Shown here one piece after another: positions 25,615-52,511 of a DNA stretch of 64,000 bases. This DNA comes from a virus (taxonomy: Duplodnaviria > Caudoviricetes): positions 42,333 to 106,332 of the IMG/VR virus record IMGVR_UViG_3300033074_001909, one strand, 5' to 3'. The translations under genes were made by a program, and so were the position numbers. Each line of letters opens with the position of its first letter. Position 1 is the first letter of the stretch. The notes under the pieces are model-generated. The model had not been told where the DNA came from and made no database searches. It worked only from the letters and a program-made list of their open reading frames with translations.

Positions 25615-28600
25615 ATGAGCATGACCACCACGCAACCAGGCGGGCAGCGGATCGGCGGACAGACCTACATGCCCGGGCAGATGCTGCCCGAACGCTATCG
25701 CCGCGTGCTGGAGCCGTCCGACCGGCCCCGCGATCCCGCCGTCCGTGATCCGGATCTGGCTCCCAACTTAGGCCGCCATACCGTCCCGCACATCATCACC
25801 TTCCAGGGGCTGGTCACCTCCCTAGCCCGGGCCTATCGCAATCCAGACGAGGCCTTCCGACACAGCGTCGAAAACGCCCACATGATGCTGACGGACCCGA
25901 CAGTGAGCGGGCCCTTGCACGCGCGGCAGATGATGACGGCGCTGCTCCAGTGGTCGGTGGAAAGCGAGGACGACAAAGATTCACAGCTCAAAGAAGCGGC
26001 CAGCCAACTCCAGAAAGTCCTGGAACGGACGCCGCGGTTCGCTGAACTGCGCCGGTGGCTGCTGGAAGCTATCTGGTATGGTCGCGCGGCCAGCCAGCAC
26101 GCGATCGGATTCCACCGCGATCGCTTCGGCGTGCGACGCAGGGTGATCAAGAAATGGCTGCCGATCTCTGGCGACAAGCTTCTCTTCCGCTACGACGACG
26201 GGAGCGGGGAGTTCGACCCGGATCAGATTGGCGTGCGGGTCAGCCCGGGACTCGGCCGCGAGGATATCATCGCCGGGCGGCGCAAACTCGAGGCCACAAC
26301 CGACGGCATGGGCTACTTCCTGGAGCCCTGGGAGCGTCGGCACTGGGCGGTCCACAAGCACATGATCCGCGACGGGGAATTCGAGGATCCACTCAGCGCA
26401 GGGCAGGTGCATGGCGTCGGCCTGCGGCACTTTCTCTATTGGGTCTGGTATCAGAAGCAGGAGGCTATGGCGCAGCTCGCCGAGGTGCTCGACCGTACTG
26501 GCGCGGGGATCACCATCTACTATTACCCCGTCGGGAATCAGGAAGCGAAAACCCAGGTGGAAAAGGTGGCCCGCGAGCAGGCGCACACCAACGTGCTGGT
26601 GATGCCGTTCGACCCGGCCAGCACAGGCGGCGACCCGTATTCGATTCAACAAATCCCGCCCAACGTAGCCGGCCTGCAGGCCCTCCAGGACATCGTGGAC
26701 GGTTATTTCGGCGACATGATCACGCGGGCCATTCTGGGTCAGACGCTGTCCAGCAAACCCTCCGCAGCGGGCATGAATACGGGCGTCTCGGATCTTCAGA
26801 AAGACTCCCTGTTCCATATCGTGCGATACGACGCGGTCAATCTCCAGGAAACCATCACGCGGGAGATCCTGTTGCCGCTGCGGGACTTCAACCTACCGAA
26901 GTTCCGCAACGTGGATTTCTTCTTCAAAATCTCGACCAAAGTCAGCGCGCCGCAGGAAGAACTGGCCGCCATTTATCAGGCCTGGCAGATGGGCACCAAA
27001 ATCCGCGTCCAGGATCTCTTCCAGAAGCTCGACATGGCCATGCCGGACAAAGACGACAAGGTCGTGTTTAACCCGCAGATTGTGTCAGCCATTCAGCAGG
27101 TCGAGAGCGCCCCGATGGGTGGTCTCGCCCCGCCCGGTGGCGCCGGGCCTCAGCCTCCCGGCGCCACCCCATTTCCACCCGGTGCTGCGGAAGGCACCCC
27201 TACAAGTGAGGGCGGGGGCCAAAATGAACCCCCGCCCATAGATAGAGGGGGTGCCAGCGGCCAACCGGAGCAACTGGATAAGGCCGAAAGCCCCGAGCAG
27301 GAACGCCGGAAGTTGTTTGGCCCGATCCTGTACGGTAAGCGCGAGGAGTATCTGGAGCGGATCAGGGAAGCGGTCGAGAACACCGAGCCCAACCCCACCG
27401 AGGCCCAGCGCGAGGCCGGCAATTATCGCAAGGGCGTGGTGCATTGGCGGGGTTTAGAAGTGGTGATCGAGACGCCCAAGGGTCAGCGGCGGCGCCCGGA
27501 ATGGCCAGCTCTGCGGGCGCATTACGGCTACATCCGCCGGCATTACCACACGGGCGAGCAACGGCTAGTCACCAGCGAGCCGTGCGCCGACGGCGACCAT
27601 CTGGATATCTTCTTGGGGCCACAGCCCGAAAGCGACATCGTGTTCGTGATCGACCAAGTGACGGCCGACGGAAAGTTCGACGAGCACAAGTGTATCCTGG
27701 GCACGACCAACAAGCGGGACGCCCGGGCGCTGTACCTGTCGAACTATGCGGACGGGTGGAAGTGCGGTCCGATCCGGGGCATGACGATCGAGACGTTCAA
27801 GCACTGGCTCGAGCACGGAGACCTGACGAAGCCGGTGGCGCGCCAGAAACTCAGGTACGCGCGGCAATTGTCGCTGTTTGACGATACGTTCTCGCTGGTG
27901 CGCAAGCCGAGATCACTCTTTGACGAAGGATCGCATCCCCGGGCAAAAGAGCATGTGGAGATCCAGGGCAAGGAATACGAAGGCGGGCAATGGATCCCGA
28001 AAGACGCGGCGGTGGAAGCCACGCCAGCGGCCCAAGAGAAAATCGAGGTAGTGGACAAGTCCACGGGCGAAACCGAACCACTTGAGCAAACGCTGAAACC
28101 TGGGGATAATGCCACCGCATCGCCACCGAGTCCCGAGGACGACTCCCATGACCAACCACGATCCGACGCAGAATTCGCACCTGGAGAGCCAGATTCCACC
28201 GGAGGAGATGGAGATCGAGGACGACCTGACGACGGAGAATCTGGCGGCGCAGGCGATTTGGGAGCAAATCCAGTTGGACCGTCAGAAGAACGGATCGTCA
28301 CCTCACGCCAACAGCACACGCGCCCAGCGGATCGATCCCTCGTTCCAGAGCGACTTCGACAACATCTAGACGACCACCAGCAGGAAGGCGTCGCCAAGGC
28401 GATTGCCTCTCTTCGGGATGTTGGTGGCTTCCTTAACTCCGACGGGACTGGCGTCGGTAAGGCGCAGCCGCTCGACGAACCGATTTTGACTCCCACCGGA
28501 TGGAAGCGGATGGGCGATCTGCAAATCGGCGATGAAGTCATTTCAGCCGACGGATTTCCCACCAAAATCAGTGGCGTCTATCCGCAAGGGCACCTGGAAG

Positions 28601-31600
28601 TCTATCGCGTCACATTCAGCGATGGATCGTGGACCGAATGCTGTGCAGAGCATTTATGGCAAACCCACACATGGTCTGATCGCCGGAATTTATCTCGCGG
28701 TTTGCGTCGCCAGGGCAATGTCCGCTCTCTACGTGAAATTGCGAGTAGTTTGGTAGCTAACGGAGGTCAATCCAACCATTCAATTCCCATGACAGCCCCC
28801 GTCGCATTTCAGCCGCGACAAATCTTGCTTGACCCGTATGTTTTGGGCGTGCTGTTGGGTGACGGAGGAATGTCCCGACAAGCATCGTTGACAGTAACCA
28901 GCGTTGACCAGGAAATTCTAGATAGCGTAGGGCATACCTTGCCTACTGGAGTGCGATTGCGACGCATTGGAAATAGTCCTAGCTACTCGATCACCACGGA
29001 TCGTCGCGCAACGAAGTCAGGCAATCCAATGGTGACGGAATTACGCCGTTTGGGACTTCATGGACCAGGAAAAACATCGGATACAAAATTCATCCCGGAA
29101 GACTACAAATTCAATTCCGTTGACGTTCGATTGTCCGTCTTGCAGGGACTAATGGATACAGACGGGACAATTGATAAGCGTGGCACAAGTTGCGTTTACA
29201 CGACAACTTCACGGAAATTGGCTGATGACATTGTGTTTCTTGTGCAGTCGTTGGGGGGAACCGCAAGAATCCAAAGCAAGCAACCAACGTATTGTTACAA
29301 CGGTGATAAACGAGACGGCAAGCAAGCGTACAACGTCACCTTGTGTCTTCCTCCTGAATTCAAGCCATTCCGGTTGTCAAGGAAGTCAGGACGAGTAGTT
29401 CCTAAGTCTAAGTACGCACCTAGGCGATACATCAAGACGGTGGAGCAAATCGGCAGTAAACCTTGTCAGTGCATTGCAGTTGAAAATAAGTCGCATTTGT
29501 ATCTGACACGCGGATTCATTGTCACGCACAATACCCGGCAGCTTCTCGCCACCGCGCAGCACTATCTAGATCAGGGTAAGAAGGTCATTGTCATCGCGCC
29601 TAAGGGCGTGACCAAAGCCGACTGGAAGAAAAAGACCGTCACCGGTTCCTGGCAGAATGACAGCCAGGCCATGGGTGTGCCGATCCACGTGACGCGGGAC
29701 GAGATCGACCCCAAGGCGGTCAATATCTCGAGCTACGAGAATCTCGCGAAGCTCAAACGGCAGGTCGACGACAACACGATCGTGATGTTCGACGAGGCGC
29801 ACTCGCTGAAGAATCGCGATTCCGCCCGCTCCAAGCACGGCGTGGAAATGGCCAATACCGCGGCGGCGGTACTCTTTGCCACGGCCACTCCCGTCGACAA
29901 GGTCGAGCACCTGCACTACCTGGACCGAGCCGGTGCCTTTGGCGGGCGATATTACGGCCAGACCTACGAGCAATTGGGACTGGAGCAAGTCGAGCAGAGC
30001 ATTGGCGGCGGCCAGACGGTCAAGAAGTGGCAGATTCGTCCTGGCGTCAAGGCATCCGAGGTCATGCGTCGCCTGTCGGGGCTATTCACGCGATTGACGG
30101 CCGATGGCCGGATGGTCAAGCGTGAAATCAGCATGAAGGACGTGCCGGTATCGGTACGGCAGGTGAAACTGCCTCCCGAGGCCCACGAAGTCCTGGATCG
30201 CATTGAGGAGGAACTGACTGGCACCTCGGCCAATGAGGGCCTGGAACGAGCTCGCATCCTGATGCACCAGCGGCGACAGCAGGAACCGTATAAAGTCGCC
30301 CCCGCAGTCGACGAAGCGCTGCAGGCGCTCGACGCGGGCCGGCAGGTGGTGATTTTCGCGTCACGGGTCAATGAATCGCAGGTTGGCGGAGAGGATGACG
30401 ACGACGAAAACGCCATCAAGTCCGAAGGAACCATGAAACTCCTGCGGGAAGAGCTCGAGCGGCGTGGCATCAAGCCGGCCGACATCGCGGAGATTCACGG
30501 CGGGGTCTCCAAGACGAAGATTCCGAAAGAAATGGACCGCTTCCAAGCTGGTCAGGCTCGCGTCGTGATCGCCACGGTGGAGAGTGGCGGCACGGGCATT
30601 AACCTGGACGACACGCGAGGAGACCGGCCGCGGACGCTGATCATGATGACGGCGCCATTTTCGGCGGTGGAAAACGTCCAGGCGGCTGGCCGAGTGTGGC
30701 GGCTCAAGACGAAGAGCATTCCCGAGATCAAGTATCTGTTCGGGGATACGGAAGTAGACGATTGGAATTCGGCGCTGATCAGCAAGAAGATGCGGACGCT
30801 GGGCGCGTCGGTAAGCGGCCAGATTGGCAAACTCGACGTGAACAATCTGAACGAGTCGGACGCGATCGATTTCGAGTCCGAAGAGCCGTACGAGTGGCAA
30901 TATCCCGGGGAGGGTGAACCGCCCTCGGCGTCGTTCACTAAACTGGATAGCGGCGAGTGGGGAATGCGAGTGGATGGCCGGGTGCGACCGGGCGAAACGG
31001 TCGAGATCGCGAAGCGGGACGGATCGAAAACGCGGCGGGTAGTCGGGAAGATCGTCAAGGCGGGCGCCGGATTCACGATCGCGACGTTGAGCGATGCGGC
31101 GCCAGCCCGCGAGCAATTGCCGCCGCCTCCACCACCGCCGCCGTCGCCGCCTCCCCCCAAAGCGCCCACGGCGAAGCCCAGTCATCCGTTCGAGGCACTG
31201 GCGGCGTGGTCGCAGCCGAAAAAGGTGAACACGGCGCAAGGGCCACGGATGGTGCGCAGCGCGCGCCCGACGGACAAATTCTGGAAAGAGTGGGGCAAGG
31301 ACAAGGAGCGATTGAAGCGTCAGGGGATCAGCGTCTCGAAGTACCAAGGAGAATGGCAGATTTCCTGGTGGCAGGAGGCACCTGATCGCAACGCGAAACG
31401 CTACGCCAAGGACATCCTGCCCGGCGGACTCGCCGACGACGCGCCACCGGTGGATGCCGCAGCCTTAGCCCGCGGCATCGCCATCGAGATGGAGCACACA
31501 GACGATCCGGCGATCGCCAAGGAAATCGCGGCCGACCATCTGGCGGAATTCCCGGACTACTACGACGCCTTGGAACAAATGGAAGCGTCGCTCCGGTCGC

Positions 31601-32058
31601 GTGCGTCGAAACTGGGAGATCGCCTGCGCTACGCCAAGGACTTAGCAGACCTGTCGGCCGAACCGCTCACCTACGCCTGCGCCTGCCGGCAGCGGTACGC
31701 GAAGGGTGACGAGTCGAGTCACGATCACGAACTGGGGCATGTAAGCGACCTGGAATTCGGGCAGGTGAGCGAGACGCCGGCATGGCGTGAGGCGTGGCAG
31801 CAAGAACTCGCCAGCGGCGAACTGAACGAGGAATCCAGCGAGAATCCAGCCGAGGGGCTGGCCGAGTATGTGGCGCTGGTGCTGCAGTCCCCGAAGCAGG
31901 CTCGCGACGAGTACCCGGTTTGCTGGGAATCGCTCGAGATGGCCGGCATGATCGAAGACGTGGCAAGCGACGGTCCAGCCCGTTATGCTTACGACGAAAG
32001 CCAGCACCCTCGTGACGATGATGGCATGGTTCAAGAATACTCCAAATTAACAGGTTGA
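25615..32058 (+). CDS. Portal (DUF935/Mu gp29-like) fused to polyvalent-protein domains: inorganic PPase-like, Strawberry-notch-like SF2 helicase with intein, DUF5661-like
   Basis: Portal 'LEAIWYG', 'ILGQTL'; PPase-like 'GNYRKG..IETPKG..HYGYI..DGDHLD..FDEHK'; helicase 'DGTGVGK|TRQ', 'DEAH', 'TATP', 'QAAGRVWR'; 'EMEHTDD..AKEIAADHL.E.PDYY'. Confidence 0.8.
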   Translation: MSMTTTQPGGQRIGGQTYMPGQMLPERYRRVLEPSDRPRDPAVRDPDLAPNLGRHTVPHIITFQGLVTSLARAYRNPDEAFRHSVENAHMMLTDPTVSGPLHARQMMTALLQWSVESEDDKDSQLKEAASQLQKVLERTPRFAELRRWLLEAIWYGRAASQHAIGFHRDRFGVRRRVIKKWLPISGDKLLFRYDDGSGEFDPDQIGVRVSPGLGREDIIAGRRKLEATTDGMGYFLEPWERRHWAVHKHMIRDGEFEDPLSAGQVHGVGLRHFLYWVWYQKQEAMAQLAEVLDRTGAGITIYYYPVGNQEAKTQVEKVAREQAHTNVLVMPFDPASTGGDPYSIQQIPPNVAGLQALQDIVDGYFGDMITRAILGQTLSSKPSAAGMNTGVSDLQKDSLFHIVRYDAVNLQETITREILLPLRDFNLPKFRNVDFFFKISTKVSAPQEELAAIYQAWQMGTKIRVQDLFQKLDMAMPDKDDKVVFNPQIVSAIQQVESAPMGGLAPPGGAGPQPPGATPFPPGAAEGTPTSEGGGQNEPPPIDRGGASGQPEQLDKAESPEQERRKLFGPILYGKREEYLERIREAVENTEPNPTEAQREAGNYRKGVVHWRGLEVVIETPKGQRRRPEWPALRAHYGYIRRHYHTGEQRLVTSEPCADGDHLDIFLGPQPESDIVFVIDQVTADGKFDEHKCILGTTNKRDARALYLSNYADGWKCGPIRGMTIETFKHWLEHGDLTKPVARQKLRYARQLSLFDDTFSLVRKPRSLFDEGSHPRAKEHVEIQGKEYEGGQWIPKDAAVEATPAAQEKIEVVDKSTGETEPLEQTLKPGDNATASPPSPEDDSHDQPRSDAEFAPGEPDSTGGDGDRGRPDDGESGGAGDLGANPVGPSEERIVTSRQQHTRPADRSLVPERLRQHLDDHQQEGVAKAIASLRDVGGFLNSDGTGVGKAQPLDEPILTPTGWKRMGDLQIGDEVISADGFPTKISGVYPQGHLEVYRVTFSDGSWTECCAEHLWQTHTWSDRRNLSRGLRRQGNVRSLREIASSLVANGGQSNHSIPMTAPVAFQPRQILLDPYVLGVLLGDGGMSRQASLTVTSVDQEILDSVGHTLPTGVRLRRIGNSPSYSITTDRRATKSGNPMVTELRRLGLHGPGKTSDTKFIPEDYKFNSVDVRLSVLQGLMDTDGTIDKRGTSCVYTTTSRKLADDIVFLVQSLGGTARIQSKQPTYCYNGDKRDGKQAYNVTLCLPPEFKPFRLSRKSGRVVPKSKYAPRRYIKTVEQIGSKPCQCIAVENKSHLYLTRGFIVTHNTRQLLATAQHYLDQGKKVIVIAPKGVTKADWKKKTVTGSWQNDSQAMGVPIHVTRDEIDPKAVNISSYENLAKLKRQVDDNTIVMFDEAHSLKNRDSARSKHGVEMANTAAAVLFATATPVDKVEHLHYLDRAGAFGGRYYGQTYEQLGLEQVEQSIGGGQTVKKWQIRPGVKASEVMRRLSGLFTRLTADGRMVKREISMKDVPVSVRQVKLPPEAHEVLDRIEEELTGTSANEGLERARILMHQRRQQEPYKVAPAVDEALQALDAGRQVVIFASRVNESQVGGEDDDDENAIKSEGTMKLLREELERRGIKPADIAEIHGGVSKTKIPKEMDRFQAGQARVVIATVESGGTGINLDDTRGDRPRTLIMMTAPFSAVENVQAAGRVWRLKTKSIPEIKYLFGDTEVDDWNSALISKKMRTLGASVSGQIGKLDVNNLNESDAIDFESEEPYEWQYPGEGEPPSASFTKLDSGEWGMRVDGRVRPGETVEIAKRDGSKTRRVVGKIVKAGAGFTIATLSDAAPAREQLPPPPPPPPSPPPPKAPTAKPSHPFEALAAWSQPKKVNTAQGPRMVRSARPTDKFWKEWGKDKERLKRQGISVSKYQGEWQISWWQEAPDRNAKRYAKDILPGGLADDAPPVDAAALARGIAIEMEHTDDPAIAKEIAADHLAEFPDYYDALEQMEASLRSRASKLGDRLRYAKDLADLSAEPLTYACACRQRYAKGDESSHDHELGHVSDLEFGQVSETPAWREAWQQELASGELNEESSENPAEGLAEYVALVLQSPKQARDEYPVCWESLEMAGMIEDVASDGPARYAYDESQHPRDDDGMVQEYSKLTG
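27209..27235. repeat. 27-bp palindrome, copy 2
   Basis: AGGGCGGGGGCCAAAATGAACCCCCGC. Confidence 0.8.
28462..29532 (+). mobile_element. Class-3-type intein (357 aa) with LAGLIDADG endonuclease in the helicase P-loop
   Basis: Starts with Ala (AQPLDEPILTPTGW); 'EHLW', 'CQCIAV', 'VTHN|T' give the Trp-Cys-Thr signature; 'LGVLLGDG', 'LQGLMDTDG'. Confidence 0.9.
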
Positions 32059-40974: not shown

Positions 40975-43900
40975 ATGGCGACAGGATTCGCTGATCGGTA
41001 TGCGGCGGAATTTGAAGAGGACAAGCATCCTCGCGACGAAGACGGCCAGTTCACGTTGAAAGTCTCGAAGATCCACGGCCCCAAGGGGGAAAAGTTCGAG
41101 AATCTGGGCGGCAAGCAGCAAGACCTGTTTGCTTTCCGTGGCGAAAAGGGGCAGATGAACCTCTTTTCCGATGCTGGCGTACCGGATGAATTGCTGCCGA
41201 AGCACATCCGCAAGGGCAAGCCGGACACCTACGCCAAGGACGAAGATCCACCCGACTCAGGCCCGCAGTGGATGACCCTGGGCGGCGGCGCGCGGGCCCT
41301 GGTCGCCGAGGACGGCACGATCCTGCAAGGCTGCGAAGGCGTCAAAGGCTACGACCTCGACGAACTGGACGAGACCCGAGACGAGCGGGCCGCCAAGCAA
41401 GAGCAGGCCGAGGACGCGGGCTGGACGAGCGCCAAAAGCGACCGGGCCCGCGAGACATGGGAAGCCTTCAAGAACAGCGACCCGACGCACCCACACTTCA
41501 TCGGCTTGGTCCGGCACGGTGGTAAGTTCCACGCCTTCGACGAGAGCGCTGGGAAACTGCAGGAGCAGCTCGGCATCGGCGATGGGCAGACGGCCGAGTT
41601 CGACGAGGACAAATTGCCGCATCACATGGAGCGGCTGATTGAGAATGGGCATCGGGTAGCCGTGATCGACCGGGCCGAGGACGGGACGCCGGATTTGGAC
41701 AGCGACGCGGACCCCGAGGCCCAGCAGGCGGTGGCAGAGGCCCACGAGGATGTGGCGGAGCAACAGGAGACCAAACCGGCTGCGGCCGGCTTCGGCATTG
41801 AGCCCGTCCATCCCGAGCGACTGAAATTGACCCAAGACGGCCGCGAGATCGGTTACATGAACTTGCGCGTCATGGGGGACCGGGGCTACATCGACGATAC
41901 GTCGATTCACGCCGCATCGCGCGGGCAAGGCGTCATGCGGCAGCTATGGCCGCAGATCGAGCAGCACTTCCGTGATCAGGGAGCCACGTCCATTCGCGCG
42001 GACGTGGTCGATCCAGCGGTAGGGGAAAAGGTCTGGGGACCGCTGGGCTTCCAGAAGGAAGGCATGTCGGGGCCGGTGGAGGTGTATCGCAAGCACCTGG
42101 ACAGTCCGGCAGCCGATTCGGAACAGGCGACCGACAAGCCACCTAGCACCAAGCGTGGTCGACTGCCAAGCACGGACGACCCTGCGCATCACGCCGTGGC
42201 GCAGCGGTTCGGTATCCCTCCGGAAACCGTCAAGGAGATCCTCGAGACGCATCCGGATGAATTATCCCGCCGCGATAACTACTTCCCGCCGAACAGTCAG
42301 CGAGATGAAGTGGTCGGCCCGACACTGGACTACGAGCCCCATCCTCTGGGATCGGCCAAAATCGATTCGAGTCAGCACAAGGCCGGCGAGACCGACAATG
42401 CCTACGTGGATTTCCTGACGGAGTTCGACCCGCAGCAACTGAAACTCAGTGAGCCTGAAGACGGCATGAGCAAGAGCCAGTCCGTAGCTGCCTATGCGGA
42501 CTGGATTAAGGCGGGCATGGAACCGCCGCCTATCAGTGTGTTCGACAGTGCGAACGGAAATGGGAATCTCGTGTCGACAAACCGCCGTCGCGTGCTGGCT
42601 GCGCAGCAAGCTGGCGCCGACAAAATCGTAGGCTGGCACGGGAAGAATAATCCCGAGACGGGATTGCCGCTCAAGCTGGGCGATATCAAGCGAGCTTATG
42701 AAGAAGCCAAGGGGCAGGGCGCGGCAGCATCGGAATCCGACCAGCAGGAGCAGACGCCGGCCGACACGGCCGGCGAAGCGGACGACTGGAACGCCGCCAC
42801 CCAGTCCCCGGCCGAGGCCACCGATGACCAATTGGCCCGGGCCATCGAATTCGCCAGCCACCTGCACGGCCACCATCAGCGTAACGCCCAGAGCGGCCAG
42901 ATCACTCCCGAGCAACTCACCTCCCTGCACGACATGATCGACGGCCACGTGGCCACGATGCAGGCCGAACTGGAAAGGAGAAAGCATGCACAAGACCAGC
43001 CCGCAGACCGAGGAAACGCAGCCGCCAGTCCAGGCGGAACCGATGACGCATCAGCAACTGGCGCAGAAACTCGACCGACAAGCGGAACTGCTGCAGCAGA
43101 TCCTGGCCCGACTGGATCACTTGGAACGCGGCACCATGATGCGGGCCAGCGCATCGCCCAGGCCCCCGGCCCCGTCCGCAGCCTCTTAGAGTCGCTCCAT
43201 CGACTGCGGGACACCCGCAAGACGGGGCAAGTCGAGACGAAGGAACTGGGGCACGAGTACGCCCGGGAAATGTACGATCACTTGAAGTCCCTCCGGCACG
43301 CCGGGGACGACTTTGGCGAGGTGCATGACCTGTCGCAGGAACTGGGCCACGGGGCGATCGGGTACGCGTCCCCCGCCGGCAATGTGGCGATGGTCCCGCC
43401 GAAATTCAAGGGACAGGACTGGCAAGTGCGGTACACGCTGCCGCATGAGTCGCAGCAGGCCCCGGCTGCAACTCCCGCCGACGCGCCCAGTGAGCCAGCC
43501 GGCCAGGGCGACGAACTCGAACTGCTCGACGACGTGATGGAAGGCGACGCCTACGAAGGCGATCTCCCCGCCAGCGACGCCGGAGGCGGCTTCCCGTGGG
43601 AAGATGCCGGGCAGGATGAACCGCCGACCGCCCCGTCGCAGCAGCCAGCGTACTCCGACGCATGGCGCGACCTGCACGCGCAGCATCAGGACTTGGTCTA
43701 CCGCACCATCCCGCATCGGGAGCAGCAGTATCGGCAGGCAGTATCCCAGGCCCAACGCGACCAACAGCGGTTTGCGGCGAAGGCCGCCGAGTACCAGTCA
43801 CAGGCGGATCAACTCGAGAGCGTCACGCCCCGCGATCCGGCTCACGCCGTGCGCATGAAGTCGGACCGGCCTTACGCTGAGGCCCGCCGGCGGATCGACA

Positions 43901-46044
43901 AGCTTCGCAAGATGAGCGCCGACTTGGATCGCAAGGCCGACGAAGCGAAACTCCATCCCCGGATTGAGTTCGCGCGGCAGCAACTTGCCGCCTCTCAGTC
44001 GGCCGCCGAGCAGTTAGCGCAGCAGAAGGCCGAGGCCGGTGGCGCCTTGGCGCCCGAAGTCGACCCGGACACGGGAAAATCGATCAGCCGTCGCGCCTAC
44101 CTGGCCAAGCAGCGCGCGGCCGGCCGGGCCGTCCAGCAGGGGAAGGGGGTCAGTCCCCGCACGCCGCTGGGGCGCGCCATCATTGCGGCGGTGGGCGATG
44201 ACCCGGTCGAACAGCAGCATTTCGGTGAAGTCCTGAAAGAGATCCACGCCAACGACATCGACGCCGTGCGGAACCGGAACGACGCCATCAAGGAAACGCT
44301 GGCGAATTTTGGGTTCATGGGCCGGGATGCCGGAAAATTCCTGCAGGCGATCCGCAAGTACGAAGATGCGGACCAGTTCCTGCGCAAGAGTCCGCTGGGT
44401 AACAAATTCGACCAGATGACAGAGTACGCCCTGACGCACTTTGGCGAAGTATTGGACGTGGCGCACACTCGCACTCACGACGACCCGGAAAGCGCGTTCT
44501 TCGAGACGCTTCAGCGAGGCCTGAAACGCGTGCCCGAGCCGCACGATGACGAGGTGGTGTCGAAAGCCCTGGAGTATTACCTGTCCAGTCTGGAGTCATC
44601 GCGCGCCCACGAAGAGCGATTGAAAACCGATCCCGCGTACCGAGAAGAAATGGCCGCGATTGAGCGAGGCGATTACACATTCTCGCGGCAGGGCGCTAAG
44701 ATCCGGTACGCCCGCTGGGCGCGGCAGAGACTCAGCCGGTGGTATCGGTATGCCCGTCAGTTGTCGCTGTTTGATGATCCGGGCGGACTGCAGTCCGCAA
44801 CCAAGCCGAAGCCGAAAGGCAAGCAGAAAGGCCTGTTCGACGAAGACGACCACCCACGGGCCACGGAACACGTCGAGATCAAGGGGAAATCCTACGAGGG
44901 CGGTCAGTGGATTCCCAAGGACGAAGCGGCGCAGGCCAGCCCCGCAGCGGCGGAGAAAATTGAAGTCGTCGACCAGGACACGGGTCAAGCCCAGCCGCTG
45001 GACGAAGTGGAAGAACAGCCGTCGGAATCGCCCGGCGCAGAGCCGGCCTCGGCAGATCCAGAACCTTTCGAGTTCAAGACAGCCGCCCAAGCGGCGCAGG
45101 AGGGAATGTCTTTCGCATCATGGCAGCAGCCGATTACAGACGCCTATCGTCATGAGCGGATCGACGAGGATCATCCAGCCTGGCAAGCAGTCTTAAACGC
45201 CCCCAATGTGTCGGACTACAACGACGCCAGGCACGTGTTTGGCAAGCATGTCCTCGCGCATGCCGGCCAGCAGGAGGTCTTTGGCACGGTCACGGCGCTA
45301 TCCGACGACCTGCAATCCGGCACGATCACGATGCCCGACGGCAGAGAGGCCAAGCACTTCATTTCCAACATGAACGACCTGGGGCCGTTCCTGCAGGATC
45401 GCTTGAAGCGGTACATTGCTACGAAGGGGCTCGACGAAACGCGCGAGGCGCTGGCCCGTAGCGAAGCAGCCAAGTATTTGGCGGGTGTGATGGCCCAAGA
45501 GGCATTCCAGAAGCAGACCAACATCGGCGAGGTGATCAAGGCGCACGGGTTCGGCCTGAAGGAAGGTATGGCGATCCGGAGCATGGTCGCGGATGAGTTC
45601 ATGAAGTTGCAAGAGGCAGCCAAGCCCCAAGCGAGCGACGCGCGCAAGCGAGCTCAAGAGAAGCGGCGGCAAACCGACGAAGCGGCGGAGAAGAAGCCAG
45701 ACGACACCGCGACATCCGCCGGCAACTACGAGGGCATCCTGCAGGAATCCGCCCCCTACGAAGAGTACGGCGACAACTACAATCGGAACATCGCAGCCTC
45801 AGCTAATCGGCTGCGCGACGCGATGGAGCGAGGGCACGATGCCAAGATGCTGGATCACTTGGCATCCGAACTGCGCACCCGGATCGACGTGCATGGGAAG
45901 AAGCCACAAGGTGGCGGTGAGGCCGAACGAGGCGACAAGCCAGACGCAGCAGGAGCAGCAGCCGAAGTCCAGGATCCAGAGCAGCCAGCCGCCGAGGCCG
46001 TCGCCAGCGATCAAGAATCCAAGATGGTGATCATCGACAAGTAG
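40975..46044 (+). CDS. Large polyvalent protein (HPR motifs, MutS-I-like, GNAT, ParB-like domains)
   Basis: RBS GGAGG; 'EDKHPRDEDGQF'; 'LVRHGGKFHAF..LIENGHRVAV'; 'SRGQGV..WGPLGF'; 'PPISV..NRRRVLAA'. Confidence 0.7.
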   Translation: MATGFADRYAAEFEEDKHPRDEDGQFTLKVSKIHGPKGEKFENLGGKQQDLFAFRGEKGQMNLFSDAGVPDELLPKHIRKGKPDTYAKDEDPPDSGPQWMTLGGGARALVAEDGTILQGCEGVKGYDLDELDETRDERAAKQEQAEDAGWTSAKSDRARETWEAFKNSDPTHPHFIGLVRHGGKFHAFDESAGKLQEQLGIGDGQTAEFDEDKLPHHMERLIENGHRVAVIDRAEDGTPDLDSDADPEAQQAVAEAHEDVAEQQETKPAAAGFGIEPVHPERLKLTQDGREIGYMNLRVMGDRGYIDDTSIHAASRGQGVMRQLWPQIEQHFRDQGATSIRADVVDPAVGEKVWGPLGFQKEGMSGPVEVYRKHLDSPAADSEQATDKPPSTKRGRLPSTDDPAHHAVAQRFGIPPETVKEILETHPDELSRRDNYFPPNSQRDEVVGPTLDYEPHPLGSAKIDSSQHKAGETDNAYVDFLTEFDPQQLKLSEPEDGMSKSQSVAAYADWIKAGMEPPPISVFDSANGNGNLVSTNRRRVLAAQQAGADKIVGWHGKNNPETGLPLKLGDIKRAYEEAKGQGAAASESDQQEQTPADTAGEADDWNAATQSPAEATDDQLARAIEFASHLHGHHQRNAQSGQITPEQLTSLHDMIDGHVATMQAELERRKHAQDQPADRGNAAASPGGTDDASATGAETRPTSGTAAADPGPTGSLGTRHHDAGQRIAQAPGPVRSLLESLHRLRDTRKTGQVETKELGHEYAREMYDHLKSLRHAGDDFGEVHDLSQELGHGAIGYASPAGNVAMVPPKFKGQDWQVRYTLPHESQQAPAATPADAPSEPAGQGDELELLDDVMEGDAYEGDLPASDAGGGFPWEDAGQDEPPTAPSQQPAYSDAWRDLHAQHQDLVYRTIPHREQQYRQAVSQAQRDQQRFAAKAAEYQSQADQLESVTPRDPAHAVRMKSDRPYAEARRRIDKLRKMSADLDRKADEAKLHPRIEFARQQLAASQSAAEQLAQQKAEAGGALAPEVDPDTGKSISRRAYLAKQRAAGRAVQQGKGVSPRTPLGRAIIAAVGDDPVEQQHFGEVLKEIHANDIDAVRNRNDAIKETLANFGFMGRDAGKFLQAIRKYEDADQFLRKSPLGNKFDQMTEYALTHFGEVLDVAHTRTHDDPESAFFETLQRGLKRVPEPHDDEVVSKALEYYLSSLESSRAHEERLKTDPAYREEMAAIERGDYTFSRQGAKIRYARWARQRLSRWYRYARQLSLFDDPGGLQSATKPKPKGKQKGLFDEDDHPRATEHVEIKGKSYEGGQWIPKDEAAQASPAAAEKIEVVDQDTGQAQPLDEVEEQPSESPGAEPASADPEPFEFKTAAQAAQEGMSFASWQQPITDAYRHERIDEDHPAWQAVLNAPNVSDYNDARHVFGKHVLAHAGQQEVFGTVTALSDDLQSGTITMPDGREAKHFISNMNDLGPFLQDRLKRYIATKGLDETREALARSEAAKYLAGVMAQEAFQKQTNIGEVIKAHGFGLKEGMAIRSMVADEFMKLQEAAKPQASDARKRAQEKRRQTDEAAEKKPDDTATSAGNYEGILQESAPYEEYGDNYNRNIAASANRLRDAMERGHDAKMLDHLASELRTRIDVHGKKPQGGGEAERGDKPDAAGAAAEVQDPEQPAAEAVASDQESKMVIIDK

Positions 46045-46119: not shown

Positions 46120-46521
46120 ATGCCACGTGCCAGCGCTCCCAGTCTTGCCCAGGCCCAGGTGGTGACCGCCGATCTGGTGACCACCTTGCGTGACTTGCTC
46201 CCCGTGTTGCTCCAGAGCCCCCGCGCCTGGGCCATCCGCTATCAGGTGAGAATCCGTAACGGCACCGTGGACCGCCGCAATTCCAAAATCTGGGACGATT
46301 CCCTGGATGATGTACCTTTTCGCGACGGCGAAGACGTGGACGTGGCCATGCAGCGCATCGAGGGCATGTTTCTCAAATTCCTGCCGCGGTATCTGGGCAA
46401 TGGCACCAACGGGGAAGCAGAGATCCTTGTGACGATCAAGGACAAGCGGGTAGCGTTTGCCACGGCCCTGGAGCGGCAACGGCTGTTCACGTGGAAGGCG
46501 GACGGCACGAGTGCCACGTAG
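46120..46521 (+). CDS. Hypothetical protein upstream of the type IV-B operon
   Basis: ORF ends 8 nt before csf1. Confidence 0.5.
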   Translation: MPRASAPSLAQAQVVTADLVTTLRDLLPVLLQSPRAWAIRYQVRIRNGTVDRRNSKIWDDSLDDVPFRDGEDVDVAMQRIEGMFLKFLPRYLGNGTNGEAEILVTIKDKRVAFATALERQRLFTWKADGTSAT

Positions 46522-46529
46522 GACGTTAA

Positions 46530-47279
46530 ATGACCGCCCCGCAATTATTTGCCAGCTACTGGCCCGAGGGACCGCATCGCTGCTACTACTGCGGCGGGCG
46601 ATGCGACGAGACGCATCGAGCTGCTGATCTGGTCCAGTCGTCGTTTACCGCACGTGATACCGTGGCTGGCGGTGAGTACGTGTGCCCTGGCTGCATCGCT
46701 GCGATGGACGAGAGGGCCACGATTACGCTGGCCGACGGCGAAGTGCGCGAAGGCCAGCGGGTCCGCTGCTACTCCTGGGTCATCACTGCCGAAGCGGCGA
46801 TCGCTGCCACCAAAGCTCATCGCGCGTGGCTGACAGGAGCGTGCCTGTCGCCTCCAGAACCGCCCTACGTCATCTCGATCAGCGACAGCGGGCAACGGCA
46901 CCTGCTGTATCGTGCCGTCGTATGCCATTCTCGCGAGATCATTACCGCCACTCTGGAGGGCGAGCGGGTAACATTCACACCCTATGAGCTTGACGAGCGG
47001 TTGACGCTGTGTCGCAAACTGATCGCGGCAACCGGCAAGCCGGCTCTGTCCGAAGCACCGACTGCACGATTCGGCATGTCGGTAGTCTCGCATCACGACG
47101 ACGAATCACTGATCTCCACGTGGCTGGAATGTCGCGAGCAACCGCTGTCTCGCCTGGCGGCGTGGCTCTCGCCTCCCAAGGAGGAATGCTTACTTGAGTT
47201 CCCAGCACCAGCAGCTCCCGCCCCCACTGCCTGTGCTCGACACCGAGCAGTTCAGGCAACGTTTAGCTGGCTTGATTGA
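46530..47279 (+). CDS. csf1: Type IV CRISPR Csf1 (Cas8-like large subunit)
   Basis: CxxC...CxxC zinc finger; 'PPEPPYVISISDSGQRHLLY'; operon context. Confidence 0.8.
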   Translation: MTAPQLFASYWPEGPHRCYYCGGRCDETHRAADLVQSSFTARDTVAGGEYVCPGCIAAMDERATITLADGEVREGQRVRCYSWVITAEAAIAATKAHRAWLTGACLSPPEPPYVISISDSGQRHLLYRAVVCHSREIITATLEGERVTFTPYELDERLTLCRKLIAATGKPALSEAPTARFGMSVVSHHDDESLISTWLECREQPLSRLAAWLSPPKEECLLEFPAPAAPAPTACARHRAVQATFSWLD

Positions 47280-47667
47280 CCAGCGATCCGAAGTGGACGC
47301 CGAAGATTTCGCCAGCGTGGCGGCGTGCGCTATCCATTTTGTCTCGTCGCTGCCGATTGTGTTCGGCGAGCAGCTCGAGCGCACCACACTGTGGGATAAG
47401 ATCGGCGCCGCCCTGGATACCGCTTACGCCAAGACCGCCGCCGATGATTGCGACTTCTTTATCAGTCGCGTGCTGGAGTCGATCCTGGCTTCTCCGGCGG
47501 CCGTCGCTCGCTGTGAGGCCATCGGCCAGGTGATAACGTGGCTCTCCGCTGCGCCGACTGAGATGCGGCACGCGTGGCTGCAGTACATCGCCACGCACCG
47601 CTATGCCGTGCTCGTACGCGCTCGCATGGCCTGGGAGCAGCAGAAGGAGGCTCGCGCCAATGCCTGA
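47194..47667 (+). CDS. cas11: Type IV-B small subunit (Cas11-like)
   Basis: Small helical protein between csf1 and csf2; RBS AAGGAGG. Confidence 0.6.
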   Translation: MSSQHQQLPPPLPVLDTEQFRQRLAGLIDQRSEVDAEDFASVAACAIHFVSSLPIVFGEQLERTTLWDKIGAALDTAYAKTAADDCDFFISRVLESILASPAAVARCEAIGQVITWLSAAPTEMRHAWLQYIATHRYAVLVRARMAWEQQKEARANA

Positions 47668-48544
47668 GACCTATACGATCCTCTGCGTGAGTGAAGCCGC
47701 CTCGCCAATCACGCACATGAGCGGCAGCGCCGGCAATGAGGCGATTATCGCTCGTGCGCCCGTGATGACGGATCGCGGGAAACTGTGGATACCATACCTC
47801 TCAGGTAATGCCCTGCGCCACCGTTGCGTGCGAGATCCAGGCGTGGATTTCCTTTTGGATCTTTACGAACTGCGAGGCAAACTTACACTGCCGCAGCTCA
47901 ATTTCCTGCGGCACGGCGGAAATCTCACGGAGTCCACCGCACACGAGAACACGGCCCGCATCGCCGAGATGAAACGCACTTGGCCGCTACTGCGATTGCT
48001 GGGTGGCTCGTTGCCAAACCAGATCCTGGCCGGCAGCCTGCAAGTCTGGCGTGGTGAACTGGTGTGCGAGGAAAACCGCCAATACCTGGCCACGCTCGGA
48101 GACTGGCTGCCCACGCGGCGACTCAAGGCTGCCGAGGAGTTCATCGGGAACTACCAGTACACGCGCGGCGATGCCGCGAAGTCCGGCGAGGCTCAGGCGG
48201 AGGAGGATCGCGAGAGCAATCTGATGATCTTCGCTGGCCAGCAGGTCAATCGTGGCTCGCTGTTTGTGCATGGCTTCGTGGCGCCTCACGCGTCGCGCGT
48301 CGAACTGGGCGCGCTGCTGCTGTCGCTCCGACTCTGGCAGTCCCGCGGCGGGACGATCGGCGGACAAGCGGCGCGCGGCCACGGCCGGCTGGCGATGTCC
48401 CTGGTCGGTGCGATCGACCAGTCGTGTGTGGACGAGTACGTCGAGTACGCGATCAGCGTGCGAGATGCGGCGATCGCGTGGCTTGAGGACTGCTTTGCGA
48501 AGCGAGCCGACAAGCCAGCGAAGACAAAGAAGGTGAAGGCATGA
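47660..48544 (+). CDS. csf2: Type IV CRISPR Csf2 (Cas7-like RAMP)
   Basis: 'SPITH', 'PYLSGNALRH', 'LRLLGG', 'IGGQAARGHG'; RBS AAGGAGG. Confidence 0.85.
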   Translation: MPETYTILCVSEAASPITHMSGSAGNEAIIARAPVMTDRGKLWIPYLSGNALRHRCVRDPGVDFLLDLYELRGKLTLPQLNFLRHGGNLTESTAHENTARIAEMKRTWPLLRLLGGSLPNQILAGSLQVWRGELVCEENRQYLATLGDWLPTRRLKAAEEFIGNYQYTRGDAAKSGEAQAEEDRESNLMIFAGQQVNRGSLFVHGFVAPHASRVELGALLLSLRLWQSRGGTIGGQAARGHGRLAMSLVGAIDQSCVDEYVEYAISVRDAAIAWLEDCFAKRADKPAKTKKVKA

Positions 48545-49206
48545 GCCTGCTCGTGATCGCGCACCTATCGTCGCCGCTGGCCGGTGATGCGCCGATGCTG
48601 GACGGACTGCTCGAGTTCGAGATGTCGCAGAGACTCGGTGCGGCGTATAAGGTCCGCCGCGATCAGCCTGCACCGCCCGCCGGAGCGATCCATATTCCGA
48701 TGCTGCGGCGCGGTATCGGCGGTTGGAGTGTTCCGCTCTGCTCGTCACCGATCTACACCGCCGAGAGTGATCGGCATGAGTACATCGGCAAGCGGCTGGC
48801 GGTCGAGCACGCCAGTGATTTACGCGAGGATGCACGGCTGGTCGTGGCGATGGGCAACGCGACCTACAAGTCATATCGCCTACCGCTGCGAGTGAGGAAT
48901 GTGTCACGCGTGGCGTGGTTCTGCGAGGGGCATCGATCGCCGATTTTGAAGCTGCTCAAATCGGTACACGCGATCGGCCGGAAGCGGTCAGATGGATACG
49001 GTCGCGTGGCGCGATGGACTGGCGAGAACGTGGATGGCAATCATCACTGGTACGGCGAGAGCGAGCACGGCCCGGTGCTCATGCGACCGCTGCCGTTTGG
49101 CGACTGGCTGCCGCGCAGCCTGCTCGGCGCGAAGCGAGATTTCGGTGCGGTCGTCGCGCCGTACTGGCATCCTGATCGCTATGCGGAGATTGTGGTGCCA
49201 TGCTGA
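48541..49206 (+). CDS. csf3: Type IV CRISPR Csf3 (Cas5-like RAMP)
   Basis: 'LDGLL', 'IGRKRSDGYGRV', 'MRPLP', 'PYWH'. Confidence 0.85.
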   Translation: MSLLVIAHLSSPLAGDAPMLDGLLEFEMSQRLGAAYKVRRDQPAPPAGAIHIPMLRRGIGGWSVPLCSSPIYTAESDRHEYIGKRLAVEHASDLREDARLVVAMGNATYKSYRLPLRVRNVSRVAWFCEGHRSPILKLLKSVHAIGRKRSDGYGRVARWTGENVDGNHHWYGESEHGPVLMRPLPFGDWLPRSLLGAKRDFGAVVAPYWHPDRYAEIVVPC

Positions 49207-49931
49207 TTCGCACTGCTCGCCACACGGCCGCAGACCTGGCATTGTGGGAGTCGCTCGAGGACGCCGACATTCTGAGGCAGGACGTGGCCGCCTATCGCGC
49301 ACGGTACGCTGAGGCGCTGCACGCGATCGCCGCGTTTACATCCGCAGGCGAGTGCTACGCCGGCATCAGTTGGGGGAAGGACTCTACCGTGCTGGCTCAT
49401 CTGATCCAGTGCGTCGCGCCTGACACGCCACTAGCCTGGACGCGAGTAGAACCGATCGCCAATCCAGACTGTGTGCTCGTGCGAGATGCGTTCCTGCGAT
49501 TGCATCCGCACGCGAACTATCACGAGATCACGGAGTGGTGTGAGTGGCGCGATGGAGAGTGGCACGCCACTGGCACGCTCGAAAGCGGCATCGCCAAGTG
49601 CCGAGAACGATGGGGAGAGCGGACGATACTCGGTATTCGAGCCGAGGAGAGCACCCAGCGTGGGTTCCGCATTTGGCGCCACGGACTATCGACGGATCGG
49701 TCGTGTGATCCACTGGGACGCTGGCGCATCGAGGACGTGATGACCTGCCTGGCAATCGAGGGACTGCCGGTGCATCCGGCTTACGCCATGCTGGGAGGCG
49801 GGCGCTGGCCGCGAGAGCAACTGCGGGTCTCGTCGCTCGGCGGTCGTCGCGGCGATGGCCTCGGGCGAGCAGAGTGGGAGCGCGAGTATTACGGCGATGT
49901 GGTGCGACGGCTGGCCATGACGGACACCTGA
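49200..49931 (+). CDS. PAPS-reductase (CysH)-like protein of the type IV-B system
   Basis: PP-loop 'SWGKDS', 'GIRAEES..R', 'PLGRW...DV', 'LPVHPAY'. Confidence 0.85.
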   Translation: MLIRTARHTAADLALWESLEDADILRQDVAAYRARYAEALHAIAAFTSAGECYAGISWGKDSTVLAHLIQCVAPDTPLAWTRVEPIANPDCVLVRDAFLRLHPHANYHEITEWCEWRDGEWHATGTLESGIAKCRERWGERTILGIRAEESTQRGFRIWRHGLSTDRSCDPLGRWRIEDVMTCLAIEGLPVHPAYAMLGGGRWPREQLRVSSLGGRRGDGLGRAEWEREYYGDVVRRLAMTDT

Positions 49932-50181: not shown

Positions 50182-50278
50182 TTGACGAAATTTCGCCGTT
50201 ATTCTAAATAACATACTCGCGACCAGAAATTGCGGTACTTCGAACAGAAGCCCGTCGGGAAACCGGCGGGCTTTTTTT
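50182..50278 (+). promoter_or_regulatory. Promoter + conserved motif + terminator (paralog of 5894-5984)
   Basis: TTGACG-17 nt-TAAATA; GGTACTTCGAACAGA; GCCCGTCGG-GAAA-CCGGCGGGC then T7. Confidence 0.75.
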
Positions 50279-50300
50279 GTTTCTTGAGGGAGTATTGGTT

Positions 50301-50576: not shown

Positions 50577-50590
50577 GGCACGGTTGACCC

Positions 50591-50791
50591 ATGGTAGTTC
50601 GAGACGGATTCGAAATCTCCGGCTCCACCGCGCGGCGCAACCTAATGTCCAACGCGCCGGTCGGACACCGGTATTACGACACCGACCACCGGCACCTGTA
50701 CGTGATGGGACCAGCCGGTTGGGAACGCGTCGCCGAGGAAGAGCAGTCGAGTTCCAGCAGTTCCAGTTCGTCCAGCAGTTCGTCGAGTTGA
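50591..50791 (+). CDS. Small protein with poly-Ser tail (paralog 2)
   Basis: Tandem duplicate; 50 bp identical at the 5' end (50312-50361 vs 50593-50642). Confidence 0.7.
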   Translation: MVVRDGFEISGSTARRNLMSNAPVGHRYYDTDHRHLYVMGPAGWERVAEEEQSSSSSSSSSSSSSS

Positions 50792-50801
50792 TTTTAGCTG
50801 C

Positions 50802-52511
50802 ATGAACACCGTCACGCCAATGCGACCGAAGCGCACGCGGGGGAACCCCACCGAGGACGGCGAGTTCGTGGTCTTCGAGCACGTGCCGATCTTCGATGAG
50901 CACGAGGGTGATGACGGCGTGGTGTACGACGAACGGCTGCTGCGGGCCATTGCCGACAACTGCAACCGCCGCATCCAGACCACCGGCGACTGGTGCCCGG
51001 CCGTGGTAGCGCACACCCGCGACCGCGAGGACAAGGCCACCGTCGATGACGATCCCCAGGTGATCGGGCTGTGCGGTCCGTTCTACGTGGCGGACTTCAC
51101 GAATGGCGATGGACGGCAGGTTAAAGCGATTCACTGCCACTTTTGGATCTTCCCCGAGGAAGAGAAGACCTTCCTGCGAAACCCGCGCCGCAGCGTGGAA
51201 ATCTGGCCCGAGGAGCGTCCGGAAGACCGGTATTTCGATCCCATCGCCTTGCTGGGCGCGGAAACGCCCAAGCGCGACCTGGGCATGATCTACAGCCGCC
51301 GGCGACCGGGCCGCGAGCCATCTCGGCGGTGCATGGCGGGGCCGCTGCGATACGCGAAGCGTTCGACGAAGCCGCTGCGGTACGAGGAAGGCGGCGGGGT
51401 CGCCAGCACCCCGGGCGGGAACAATACGTTCATTCCGGGGGCCGTCGAGATCCCCAAGAAGAAGAAACCACTTCAGCACGCGAAAGGATCATCGCCCATG
51501 GCGCTATCACCGGATGATATCAGCCAAATCGTCGAAGCCCTGCGGCCGACGATTGAATCGATTGTCGATGAGCGGATGGGGCCGGCGGACCTGGGCAATG
51601 ACGCCGATCTTGGCGCAGCCCCCGACTTGGGTGGCGCTCCGGACATGGGTGGCGCGGATCTGGGTGGTGCCCCGGGCGGCGACATGGACGACGTGCCGAA
51701 CTACGACGACATGGACGAGGAGTCGAAGCTCTACAGCCGCGGACTGGGCCGCAAATACATGCGGTACAAGAAGGACGAGGGCTGGGATGAGGACGGCGAG
51801 TCGTCGTTCATGGCCACGCTCGACGACGACGACAAGGGGAAACTCGGGTCGTACATGAAGTACATGTGCGACGACGATGACTCGAAGAAGCGGTATGCCG
51901 AGCGGTATGCCAAGAGCCCCATCGGCGGCACGGACCTCACCGAGTCGGGCCCGATGGCCACCGGCGAAATGAAAGACGGCGAGCCCACGCGTTACGGGAA
52001 GGGGATGCCCATGAATTACCAGAAGTTGCGTCAGGAACGCGACGAAGCCGCGGCCAAGTATTCCAAACTGAACCGCGAGCACCAGGAACTGAAGCAGAAG
52101 TACGCCAAGCAGGAAGGCGAACTGGCGACCGTCCGCCAGAAGGAACGCTATTCCCGCCGGCTGTCGCAACTCAAGGATCTCGAGCCGGAGTACGCGTTCG
52201 ACGCCGAAGAGGAAATGTCCCTCACCGAGGATTTTTCCGACGACCAGTTCACGCGGCACCTGGATGTGATCAAGACGCGGTACGCCAAGGTTAGCGGCCA
52301 GACGATGCCCACCGAGCGGGAGCGGCCCTTACCATCGCCCGCCCAGGAAAAGCAGCAGCGGTACGCCAAGCAGGCCACGGATCTGGTGCAGCGCTACCGC
52401 AAGGCAGGCCGCAGCATTGATTACGGCAAGCTGCTGGATCACCTGATCGAGAATCACGGCCAGGTGAACGAAGACAAACTGTTCCAGTCCAACGGCCACG
52501 CGGCCGCCTGA
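50802..52511 (+). CDS. Prohead protease/scaffold protein
   Basis: Upstream of decoration and capsid genes; 'VVAH', 'RRSVE', 'IALLGAETP' (Mu-type protease pattern); acidic and coiled-coil C-terminus. Confidence 0.7.
   Translation: MNTVTPMRPKRTRGNPTEDGEFVVFEHVPIFDEHEGDDGVVYDERLLRAIADNCNRRIQTTGDWCPAVVAHTRDREDKATVDDDPQVIGLCGPFYVADFTNGDGRQVKAIHCHFWIFPEEEKTFLRNPRRSVEIWPEERPEDRYFDPIALLGAETPKRDLGMIYSRRRPGREPSRRCMAGPLRYAKRSTKPLRYEEGGGVASTPGGNNTFIPGAVEIPKKKKPLQHAKGSSPMALSPDDISQIVEALRPTIESIVDERMGPADLGNDADLGAAPDLGGAPDMGGADLGGAPGGDMDDVPNYDDMDEESKLYSRGLGRKYMRYKKDEGWDEDGESSFMATLDDDDKGKLGSYMKYMCDDDDSKKRYAERYAKSPIGGTDLTESGPMATGEMKDGEPTRYGKGMPMNYQKLRQERDEAAAKYSKLNREHQELKQKYAKQEGELATVRQKERYSRRLSQLKDLEPEYAFDAEEEMSLTEDFSDDQFTRHLDVIKTRYAKVSGQTMPTERERPLPSPAQEKQQRYAKQATDLVQRYRKAGRSIDYGKLLDHLIENHGQVNEDKLFQSNGHAAA

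Follow-up and report, generated by a model that had tools for sequence, protein, structure and literature searches.

How are polyvalent phage proteins, which are thought to be packaged arsenals, cut into their working parts? The published proposal rests on embedded zinc peptidases: Iyer, Burroughs, Anand, de Souza and Aravind (2017) predicted that such proteins are packaged and injected, and that they are processed mainly by zincin peptidases embedded within them (PMC5512222). We addressed the question at a locus in a 64-kb stretch of DNA (hereafter the window), the last part of a 106,332-bp viral contig (IMG/VR record IMGVR_UViG_3300033074_001909; G+C content about 62%) that IMG/VR classes as linear and about 75% complete. 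Three of its genes, all on the + strand, are the subject here: P0001 (25603-32058; 2,151 amino acids, aa), a portal fused to cargo; P0002 (40924-46044; 1,706 aa), a second polyvalent protein; and P0003 (50802-52511; 569 aa), a protease/scaffold protein. An initial annotation of the window had noticed a recurrent tyrosine-centred motif in these proteins, and had proposed that it marks domain junctions where a prohead protease releases separate enzymes, or alternatively that it is a packaging code. Our analysis of sequences and a structural model indicates that the motif, [RK]-Y-[ASG]-[KR], is probably a recognition and cleavage site of the predicted capsid-maturation protease at the N-terminus of P0003.

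All motif instances in the initial annotation were found where it had placed them. We counted the strict form, [RK]-Y-[ASG]-[KR], in a greedy set of open reading frames (ORFs) for the whole genome (129 ORFs, 32,217 aa). It occurs 15 times, with 14 occurrences in P0001, P0002 and P0003 against 0.49 expected from composition (29-fold; Poisson probability 4e-16), and one in the remainder of the genome against 1.93 expected, so the enrichment over the rest of the proteome that had been suggested as a check is present. All ten occurrences of R-Y-A-[KR] lie within the same three proteins. The observed count was reached by none of 5,000 residue shuffles for P0001 or for P0003, and by 57 for P0002, which taken alone is therefore modestly significant. 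Control motifs with F or W for Y, with reversed order, or with LIVM or DE for the small residue showed no enrichment in the genome. Chance or composition as the source of the count was accordingly rejected, on the composition-matched expectation, the shuffles and the control motifs. A DNA-level signal was also rejected: the 14 sites are encoded by 12 distinct DNA 12-mers, and selection therefore acts on the peptide and not on a DNA word.

The strict sites start at residues 183, 368, 397, 419, 433, 449, 493 and 520 of P0003 (eight), 751, 1933, 2009 and 2031 of P0001 (four), and 1261 and 1275 of P0002 (two). This definition takes in most of the instances first listed; LYGK (residue 576) and RYAY (2127) of P0001, and RYAA (25) and TYAK (102) of P0002, are looser than it. 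Functional variants of the site most likely include forms with a hydrophobic residue before Tyr, with Q as the third residue, or with F for Y, judging from the sequences described below.

P0003 had no match in Pfam or PHROGs, and its profile matched no relevant PDB sequence, with no detected sequence similarity to assemblin. The protease domain (residues 20-174; 50859-51323) is assigned from an AlphaFold model, a structure search and invariant residues. The model, built on 39 homologues, has an N-terminal domain (residues 20-165) with a predicted local distance difference test score (pLDDT) of about 90, followed by a disordered linker and a mostly helical C-terminal half. Searching 48,161 PDB representatives with VIA-align, which is independent of Foldseek, placed the varicella-zoster virus protease first (Z 8.6, 110 aligned residues, root-mean-square deviation 3.0) and T4 gp21 (5jbl) second (Z 8.0, 122 aligned residues, deviation 4.2). 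Human cytomegalovirus protease scored Z 6.2; unrelated entries scored at most 6.0 and were single-helix noise from the scaffold part. In a second-look structure search the top 18 entries were all herpesvirus proteases. Residues H34, H71, S131 and E133 are invariant in the 39 homologues. By this model, P0003 is a capsid-maturation protease joined to a scaffold, its N-domain having the herpesvirus-assemblin/T4 gp21 fold and a predicted proteolytic activity; the earlier claim that the protein starting at 50802 carries a protease domain agrees with that fold. Profiles for the S78, S77, S49 and Mu-like proteases (PF04586, PF10123, PF01343, PF03420) match nowhere in the genome, and by these profiles it holds no other head-protease family.

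The position of the gene is that of a head-module protease. It directly precedes a cement-like gene (a weak match to Pfam Phage_cement, E-value 8e-4, under the curated cut-off), a putative capsid gene and a weakly Mu gp36-like gene (E-value 3e-4, also under cut-off). For comparison we collected 67 IMG/VR loci that encode the P0003 protease family, with flanks of up to 10 kb, and portal genes stand upstream of the protease gene in 34 of them.

Within P0003 the two best-conserved sites lie in the linker just after the protease domain, in or beside the region with pLDDT below 50. One is IYSR (51288-51299) at the end of the domain, whose Tyr164 is invariant in the 39-homologue alignment; its usual form, I/V-Y-[SA]-[KR], has a hydrophobic residue before Tyr. 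The other is RYAK at site 183 (51348-51359), a candidate self-release site in a conserved G-P-[LF]-R-Y-[SA]-K-R stretch, found in the same alignment column in 17 of the 39 homologues. Such proteases free themselves at just this place, which is why we read the two as probable self-release sites. Herpesvirus assemblin, the best structural match, is likewise fused to its scaffold and releases itself at maturational (M) and release (R) sites with a small residue beside the cut, which falls between Ala and Ser; the motif here is instead Tyr-centred with basic flanks. Seven further strict sites occupy conserved columns in the scaffold half, starting at 51903, 51990, 52056, 52098, 52146, 52278 and 52359 (span 51903-52370). 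Three helical sites among those of P0003 are spaced by 14 and 16 residues, and Lys, Arg and Ala are common in scaffolds, as would be expected if the motif had no processing role and instead reflected the structure or composition of these proteins (helix packing, coiled-coil register), or were modified on its tyrosine. We regard this as extremely improbable, given that composition is excluded by the matched expectation and the shuffles, that half of the P0003 sites are in disorder or at helix ends, and that the motif turns up again in unrelated cargo linkers and persists in homologues with as little as about 30% identity.

This conservation holds across a large family. In 85 homologues of P0003, with identity down to about 30%, there are 255 strict motifs against 7.5 expected, and in the 39-sequence alignment the motifs stand in fixed columns (reference positions 184, 369, 398, 420, 434, 450, 494 and 521). 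A profile search of 1.84 billion cluster representatives found 1,933 family members at an E-value of at most 1e-3, and 892 at 1e-30; the family size of about 1,900 is thus a count of clusters at 50% identity. A further 116 representatives, none of them in the earlier set, contain 234 strict motifs against 8.2 expected (29-fold), a count that rises to 335 against 9.6 when Q is allowed as the third residue. Putting F for Y gives 50 against 6.5, and the reversed motif falls below expectation (4 against 8.2). The partial replacement of Y by F and the depletion of the reversed motif fit a directional specificity pocket. The scaffold of a complete 83-kb relative (L188, 33616-35148) has R-Y-Q-K three times, plus R-Y-K-K and R-Y-A-K, so the residue after Tyr drifts within the family. 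In the 67 related loci, sites number 91 against 4.0 expected in protease/scaffold ORFs, 27 against 6.7 in ORFs of at least 900 aa, which are mostly portal fusions and polyvalent proteins, and 35 against 19 in all others. No cultured relative of the P0003 protease/scaffold or of the putative capsid protein was found among 50,697 phage records.

If the motif is a cleavage site, it should be informative to see where it falls in the other two proteins, whose genes lie in or beside the head module. P0001 consists of a Mu-type portal, an InPase domain, an SNF2/Strawberry-notch-type helicase with a LAGLIDADG intein, a DUF5661 module and a C-terminal region with a zincin-like module, and so has the several unrelated enzymatic domains of a polyvalent protein, with a virion-packaging context given by the portal fusion. 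Domain borders were taken from hidden Markov model alignments. Near the portal N-terminus stands ERYRR (25690-25704), a degenerate copy of a site, P-E-R-Y-[AS]-R, that is strict in three portal-fusion homologues (P0108, P0109, P0115) about 25 residues from the N-terminus. The portal domain (25783-27327; PF06074, E-value 1e-32, with local alignments to 34 portal homologues) is followed straight away by LYGK (27328-27339), and L-F-G-P-I-[LM]-Y-[GSA]-[KR] ends the portal in 8 of 11 portal-fusion homologues. Next come the InPase domain (27400-27813; a full-length match to PF18823, E-value 2e-34) and, 14 residues past it, RYAR (27853-27864). All 11 portal-fusion homologues have [RK]-Y-[AG]-[KR] 11-14 residues past InPase, whatever comes next. 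No Tyr site follows the InPase domain in unrelated polyvalent proteins.

Towards the C-terminus, RYAK (31399-31410) stands directly before the DUF5661 module (31408-31602; PF18905, E-value 3e-10), where homologue P0114 has K-Y-A-K, and another RYAK (31627-31638) follows the module. A Y-[SAG]-K is kept after DUF5661 in P0108, where the domain lies between portal and InPase, and in P0110, P0113 and P0114, where it lies elsewhere in the chain; the distant relatives L052 and L062 have no such site after the domain. These absences exclude the site being a built-in part of either InPase or DUF5661. By sequence comparison, then, the sites sit at module borders and travel with the modules. A third RYAK (31693-31704; R-Y-G-K in P0114) precedes the small zincin-like metallopeptidase module (31708-31980), which has HExxH, then E-G-x-A-E, and ends in a Cys-Trp helix. 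Beyond it are RYAY and a second sequence element, the HPR tag described below (together 31981-32037), at the C-terminus of the protein with no module after them.

The zincin-like module brings into play the enzyme class proposed by Iyer et al. 2017, since the sites could be cut by this small metallopeptidase at the end of P0001 and not by the head protease. P0001 shares the HExxH and the E-G-x-A-E helix downstream of it with cargo from three related loci (L010, L013, L021), apart from one L013 copy without HExxH, and the general proposal for polyvalent proteins (PMC5512222) points the same way. The module occurs, however, in only about 6 of the 67 related loci, as far as their 10-kb flanks reach, while the motif is family-wide; the scaffold, the richest substrate, is left unexplained; and the module has no Pfam support, with no match even at an E-value of 1. 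We therefore judge this source of the cuts to be quite improbable.

P0002 shows in Pfam a GNAT domain only, and has at least four other conserved blocks, so that it too joins several domains in one polypeptide. Its N-terminus carries RYAA and then an HPR tag (40996-41052); the closest homologue, P0228, has Q-Y-S-A and K-Y-A-W and then the tag. TYAK (41227-41238) stands about 10 residues upstream of a conserved domain with which homologues P0229 and P0232 begin. Two RYAR sites (starting at 44704 and 44746; 44704-44757) precede the second tag of P0002, and R-Y-A-R-Q-L-S-L-F is kept there in P0228 and in L003.

Not every border is marked in this way. The statement that the motif marks domain junctions is right for the portal end, the InPase border and the flanks of DUF5661 and of the small zincin, and too broad for the proteins as a whole, many borders being free of sites. 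No site occurs in residues 107-1260 of P0002, so that GNAT and its neighbours would stay one piece, or in residues 755-1932 of P0001, so that the helicase block (about 1,180 aa before intein splicing) would do likewise. With many junctions lacking a site, only some modules would be freed, and the earlier phrase 'release separate enzymes' was an overstatement.

At the cargo junctions the site is usually part of a longer, composite element that the initial annotation missed while placing the sites themselves correctly: the Tyr site, then 1-5 residues, then [WF]-x-E-x-x-H-P-R-x-x-x-G-K-F, here called the HPR tag. Of the four tags in the phage, one lies N-terminally in P0002, one C-terminally in P0001, and the other two are loop-bearing variants. 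The first variant (LFDE..HPR... with an inserted loop; 27916-27999) opens the helicase block of P0001, and the second (44833-44916) opens the C-terminal block of P0002. Both lie in a stretch of about 88 residues that P0001 and P0002 (residues 1275-1360) have in common at 61% identity (E-value 6e-31; 27835-28140 and 44728-45030 in the window), consisting of a Tyr site, L-S-L-F-D-D and the tag variant with its loop ending G-G-Q-W-I-P; it occurs in P0108 and P0116 as well.

The tag is generic, with at least 118 stretches in an IMG/VR pattern scan. A Tyr followed by a small residue lies within 12 residues upstream of 13 of 24 tags that accompany the protease family, against 3 of 90 non-redundant tags in an arbitrary sample of viral contigs (Fisher 2e-8; the counts ignore shared ancestry). 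Two sample loci with V-R-Y-A-A upstream of the tag also carry the protease family and were left out of the 90. In Burkholderia phage vB_E436 a tag stands between the portal and a C-terminal extension without a site, and the protein of its scaffold region is a different scaffold protein without such motifs. From the tag counts, the site-free InPase elsewhere and vB_E436 we conclude that of the two halves of the junction only the site is specific to the protease lineage. Among cultured phages, a query with 27 aa of the tag found nothing better than weak matches (E-value about 3); all 12 of these lie in or beside portal genes of Burkholderia, Pseudomonas and Xanthomonas phages. Across loci, how many sites the scaffold has and what fraction of tags follow a Tyr and a small residue showed no relation, in a data set too small for the purpose. 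One protein of an unrelated viral contig (L092, 991-3405) has five HPR tags, each preceded by [IV]-[AVI]-D-[AV]-E, and D-A-[EDA] stands before many of the other tags in the sample; another protease lineage may use this as its junction code.

Taken with the fold of P0003, these patterns argue for cleavage by the head protease, in that the motif is densest in the protease's own chain, is best conserved at the place of self-release and is directional, needs a small residue after the aromatic one, and recurs at borders of procapsid-bound proteins. The earlier proposal of prohead-protease sites is thus supported in part by the fold, the family-wide conservation, the border positions and the coupling to lineage; that a peptide bond is cut, at which position in the motif and by which enzyme, we infer from them.

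In the proposed sequence of events, the protease/scaffold, the portal fusion and the second polyvalent protein would co-assemble in the procapsid. The protease would free itself at sites 164 and 183 just past its own domain and chop the helical scaffold at about seven more sites, so that the pieces can leave. The same enzyme would detach the cargo from the portal ring by a cut after residue 577, separate InPase, the helicase block, DUF5661 and the small zincin in P0001, and cut P0002 near its N-terminus and at 1261/1275. Each larger cargo block would then begin with a generic HPR-x3-G-K-F tag, which might serve addressing or ejection. P0001 would yield the portal, ending at about residue 577, and InPase, ending at about 752, followed by a helicase block that begins with a tag and runs to about 1934; then come DUF5661, a spacer of 22 residues, the zincin-like module and, last, a peptide with the C-terminal tag. 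From P0002 the predicted products are a short leader followed by three pieces: about 75 residues with a tag at the front, a block of about 1,150 residues, and a C-terminal block of about 430 residues, again with a tag at the front. More tentatively, the Tyr site and the HPR-x3-G-K-F tag may together make up a modular junction of the 'cut here, then address label' type, with modules shuffling together with their own junctions and the site being re-tuned to the head protease of each lineage.

Several observations count against cutting by P0003. The fold match is moderate (Z 8 to 8.6), with a catalytic role for His71 and Ser131 that is putative and drawn from their invariance. The putative major capsid protein has no strict site. 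Two more distant complete relatives (83 kb and 100 kb) are weakly enriched in the strict motif, with 6 against 2.2 expected and 5 against 2.5, totals that are slightly low as the scaffold ORF with R-Y-Q-K fell outside the greedy ORF set. The flanks also differ, E or Q standing two residues before Tyr in scaffold sites and a hydrophobic residue in cargo sites.

Three further difficulties lend themselves to a different explanation, the 'packaging code' of the initial annotation, which we keep as a live rival. The motif would be a docking or cargo-loading peptide whose partner is the inside face of the capsid, the portal or the scaffold core, with many copies in the scaffold giving avidity, the cargo mimicking them, and any cutting taking place elsewhere. 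Encapsulin cargo-loading peptides, the model behind this idea, are likewise short linear cargo peptides, and the motif could in the same way bind inside an HK97-fold shell; they are usually single and C-terminal, and do not occur in a protease/scaffold protein. T4 has a capsid-targeting sequence on its internal proteins and on Alt. Docking would suit the four of eight strict P0003 sites that lie inside confidently predicted long helices, the other four being in disorder or at helix ends. It would suit the physical closeness of the Tyr site to the HPR tag, 4 to 7 residues apart, and the site-plus-tag at an extreme N- or C-terminus with no domain there to free; at the C-terminus of P0001 nothing follows, and domain release does not explain the element. 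The coupling to lineage, which ignores shared ancestry, would come out the same with a lineage-specific docking motif and its receptor. Set against docking are the most conserved copies, which lie in the disordered linker just past the protease domain, and the strict aromatic-small order, in which F is partly tolerated and reversal is not, more typical of a protease subsite. The portal fusion, moreover, already ensures incorporation, yet the post-portal and post-InPase sites are kept in nearly all homologues. On this evidence we consider docking unlikely, and favour cleavage by the head protease.

Cleavage of this kind has well-studied counterparts, and the principle that one protease consensus is common to scaffold and packaged proteins is already known. 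Self-cutting is known from SPN3US gp245, which acts after A-x-E and also processes the portal, the capsid and ejected proteins, propeptides being cut more than once (PMC10052503); its cuts and those of phiKZ gp175, which has the A-x-E motif as well, were mapped by mass spectrometry (PMC10052503, PMC5694885). T4 gp21 cuts scaffold, portal and ejected proteins at its own short motif (PMC5694885, PMC9026906). A short motif above background in the protease/scaffold and in other head proteins is a feature of T4 and phiKZ/SPN3US-type substrates alike, and was found here too. With T4 the locus has in common the fold class of the protease and one short motif in scaffold or core and in packaged, injected proteins, from which T4 removes N-terminal leader peptides. 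It differs in the motif (basic-Tyr-small-basic, unlike the L/I-x-E, x-x-Glu of T4 gp21), in the lack of a Pfam S77 match, and in its architecture, protease and scaffold forming a single fusion protein and the cargo being either attached to the portal or arrayed in polyvalent proteins. The phiKZ/SPN3US systems resemble it in using one consensus in many head and ejected proteins, with multiple propeptide cuts, self-cutting and portal processing, which here are predicted. Their cuts are experimentally proven where ours are inferred, and their motif is different; the phage here has a 106-kb contig and a Mu-type portal, and its predicted cuts fall between enzyme modules and not only in N-terminal propeptides.

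P0001 and P0002 resemble the polyvalent proteins of Iyer et al. in their portal fusion, InPase, SNF2-type helicase, GNAT and zincin-like peptidase, whereas the evidence here, unlike the published proposal, points to a head protease and a defined site (PMC5512222). Text searches found neither the Tyr site nor the HPR tag described in that paper or in the MuF toxin paper, and no linker or cleavage-site motif in the former; this does not prove that the two elements are undescribed. What is new is the motif, the large unannotated protease/scaffold family, the application to portal-fused and polyvalent cargo, and the pairing with a generic tag. The locus thereby offers an alternative answer to how such arsenals are cut: a defined four-residue site, an unannotated protease family (about 1,900 clusters, in uncultured phages only) and defined substrates, of which the portal carries about 1,600 residues of cargo. 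If the cleavage is confirmed, mature injected proteins could be predicted from metagenomic sequence, and the phage would provide a natural cleavable linker and portal anchor for loading foreign proteins into capsids. If the junctions are indeed as we tentatively describe them, sequence would reveal the mature injected proteome for uncultured phages amounting to about 1,900 protein clusters, and the processing of polyvalent proteins would be the job of the head protease and not of embedded zincin peptidases. A docking signal would be of interest as well, as a cargo-loading peptide for a tailed-phage capsid.

Some minor features of the contig remain. The LAGLIDADG-type intein of P0001 (PF14528, PF05204; window 28450-29550, residues about 950-1316) splits the helicase just past its G-T-G-V-G-K P-loop, and PHROG matches in this region are to intein-bearing terminases and primases and do not indicate a terminase function. 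Between P0002 and the head genes lie five close-packed genes (46120-49931) with no clear Pfam matches, the last of which has a weak PAPS-reductase match (E-value 0.008). Outside the window, at the start of the contig (776-10978), four tandem ORFs of 830-876 aa each have high third-position G+C content and may be paralogues.

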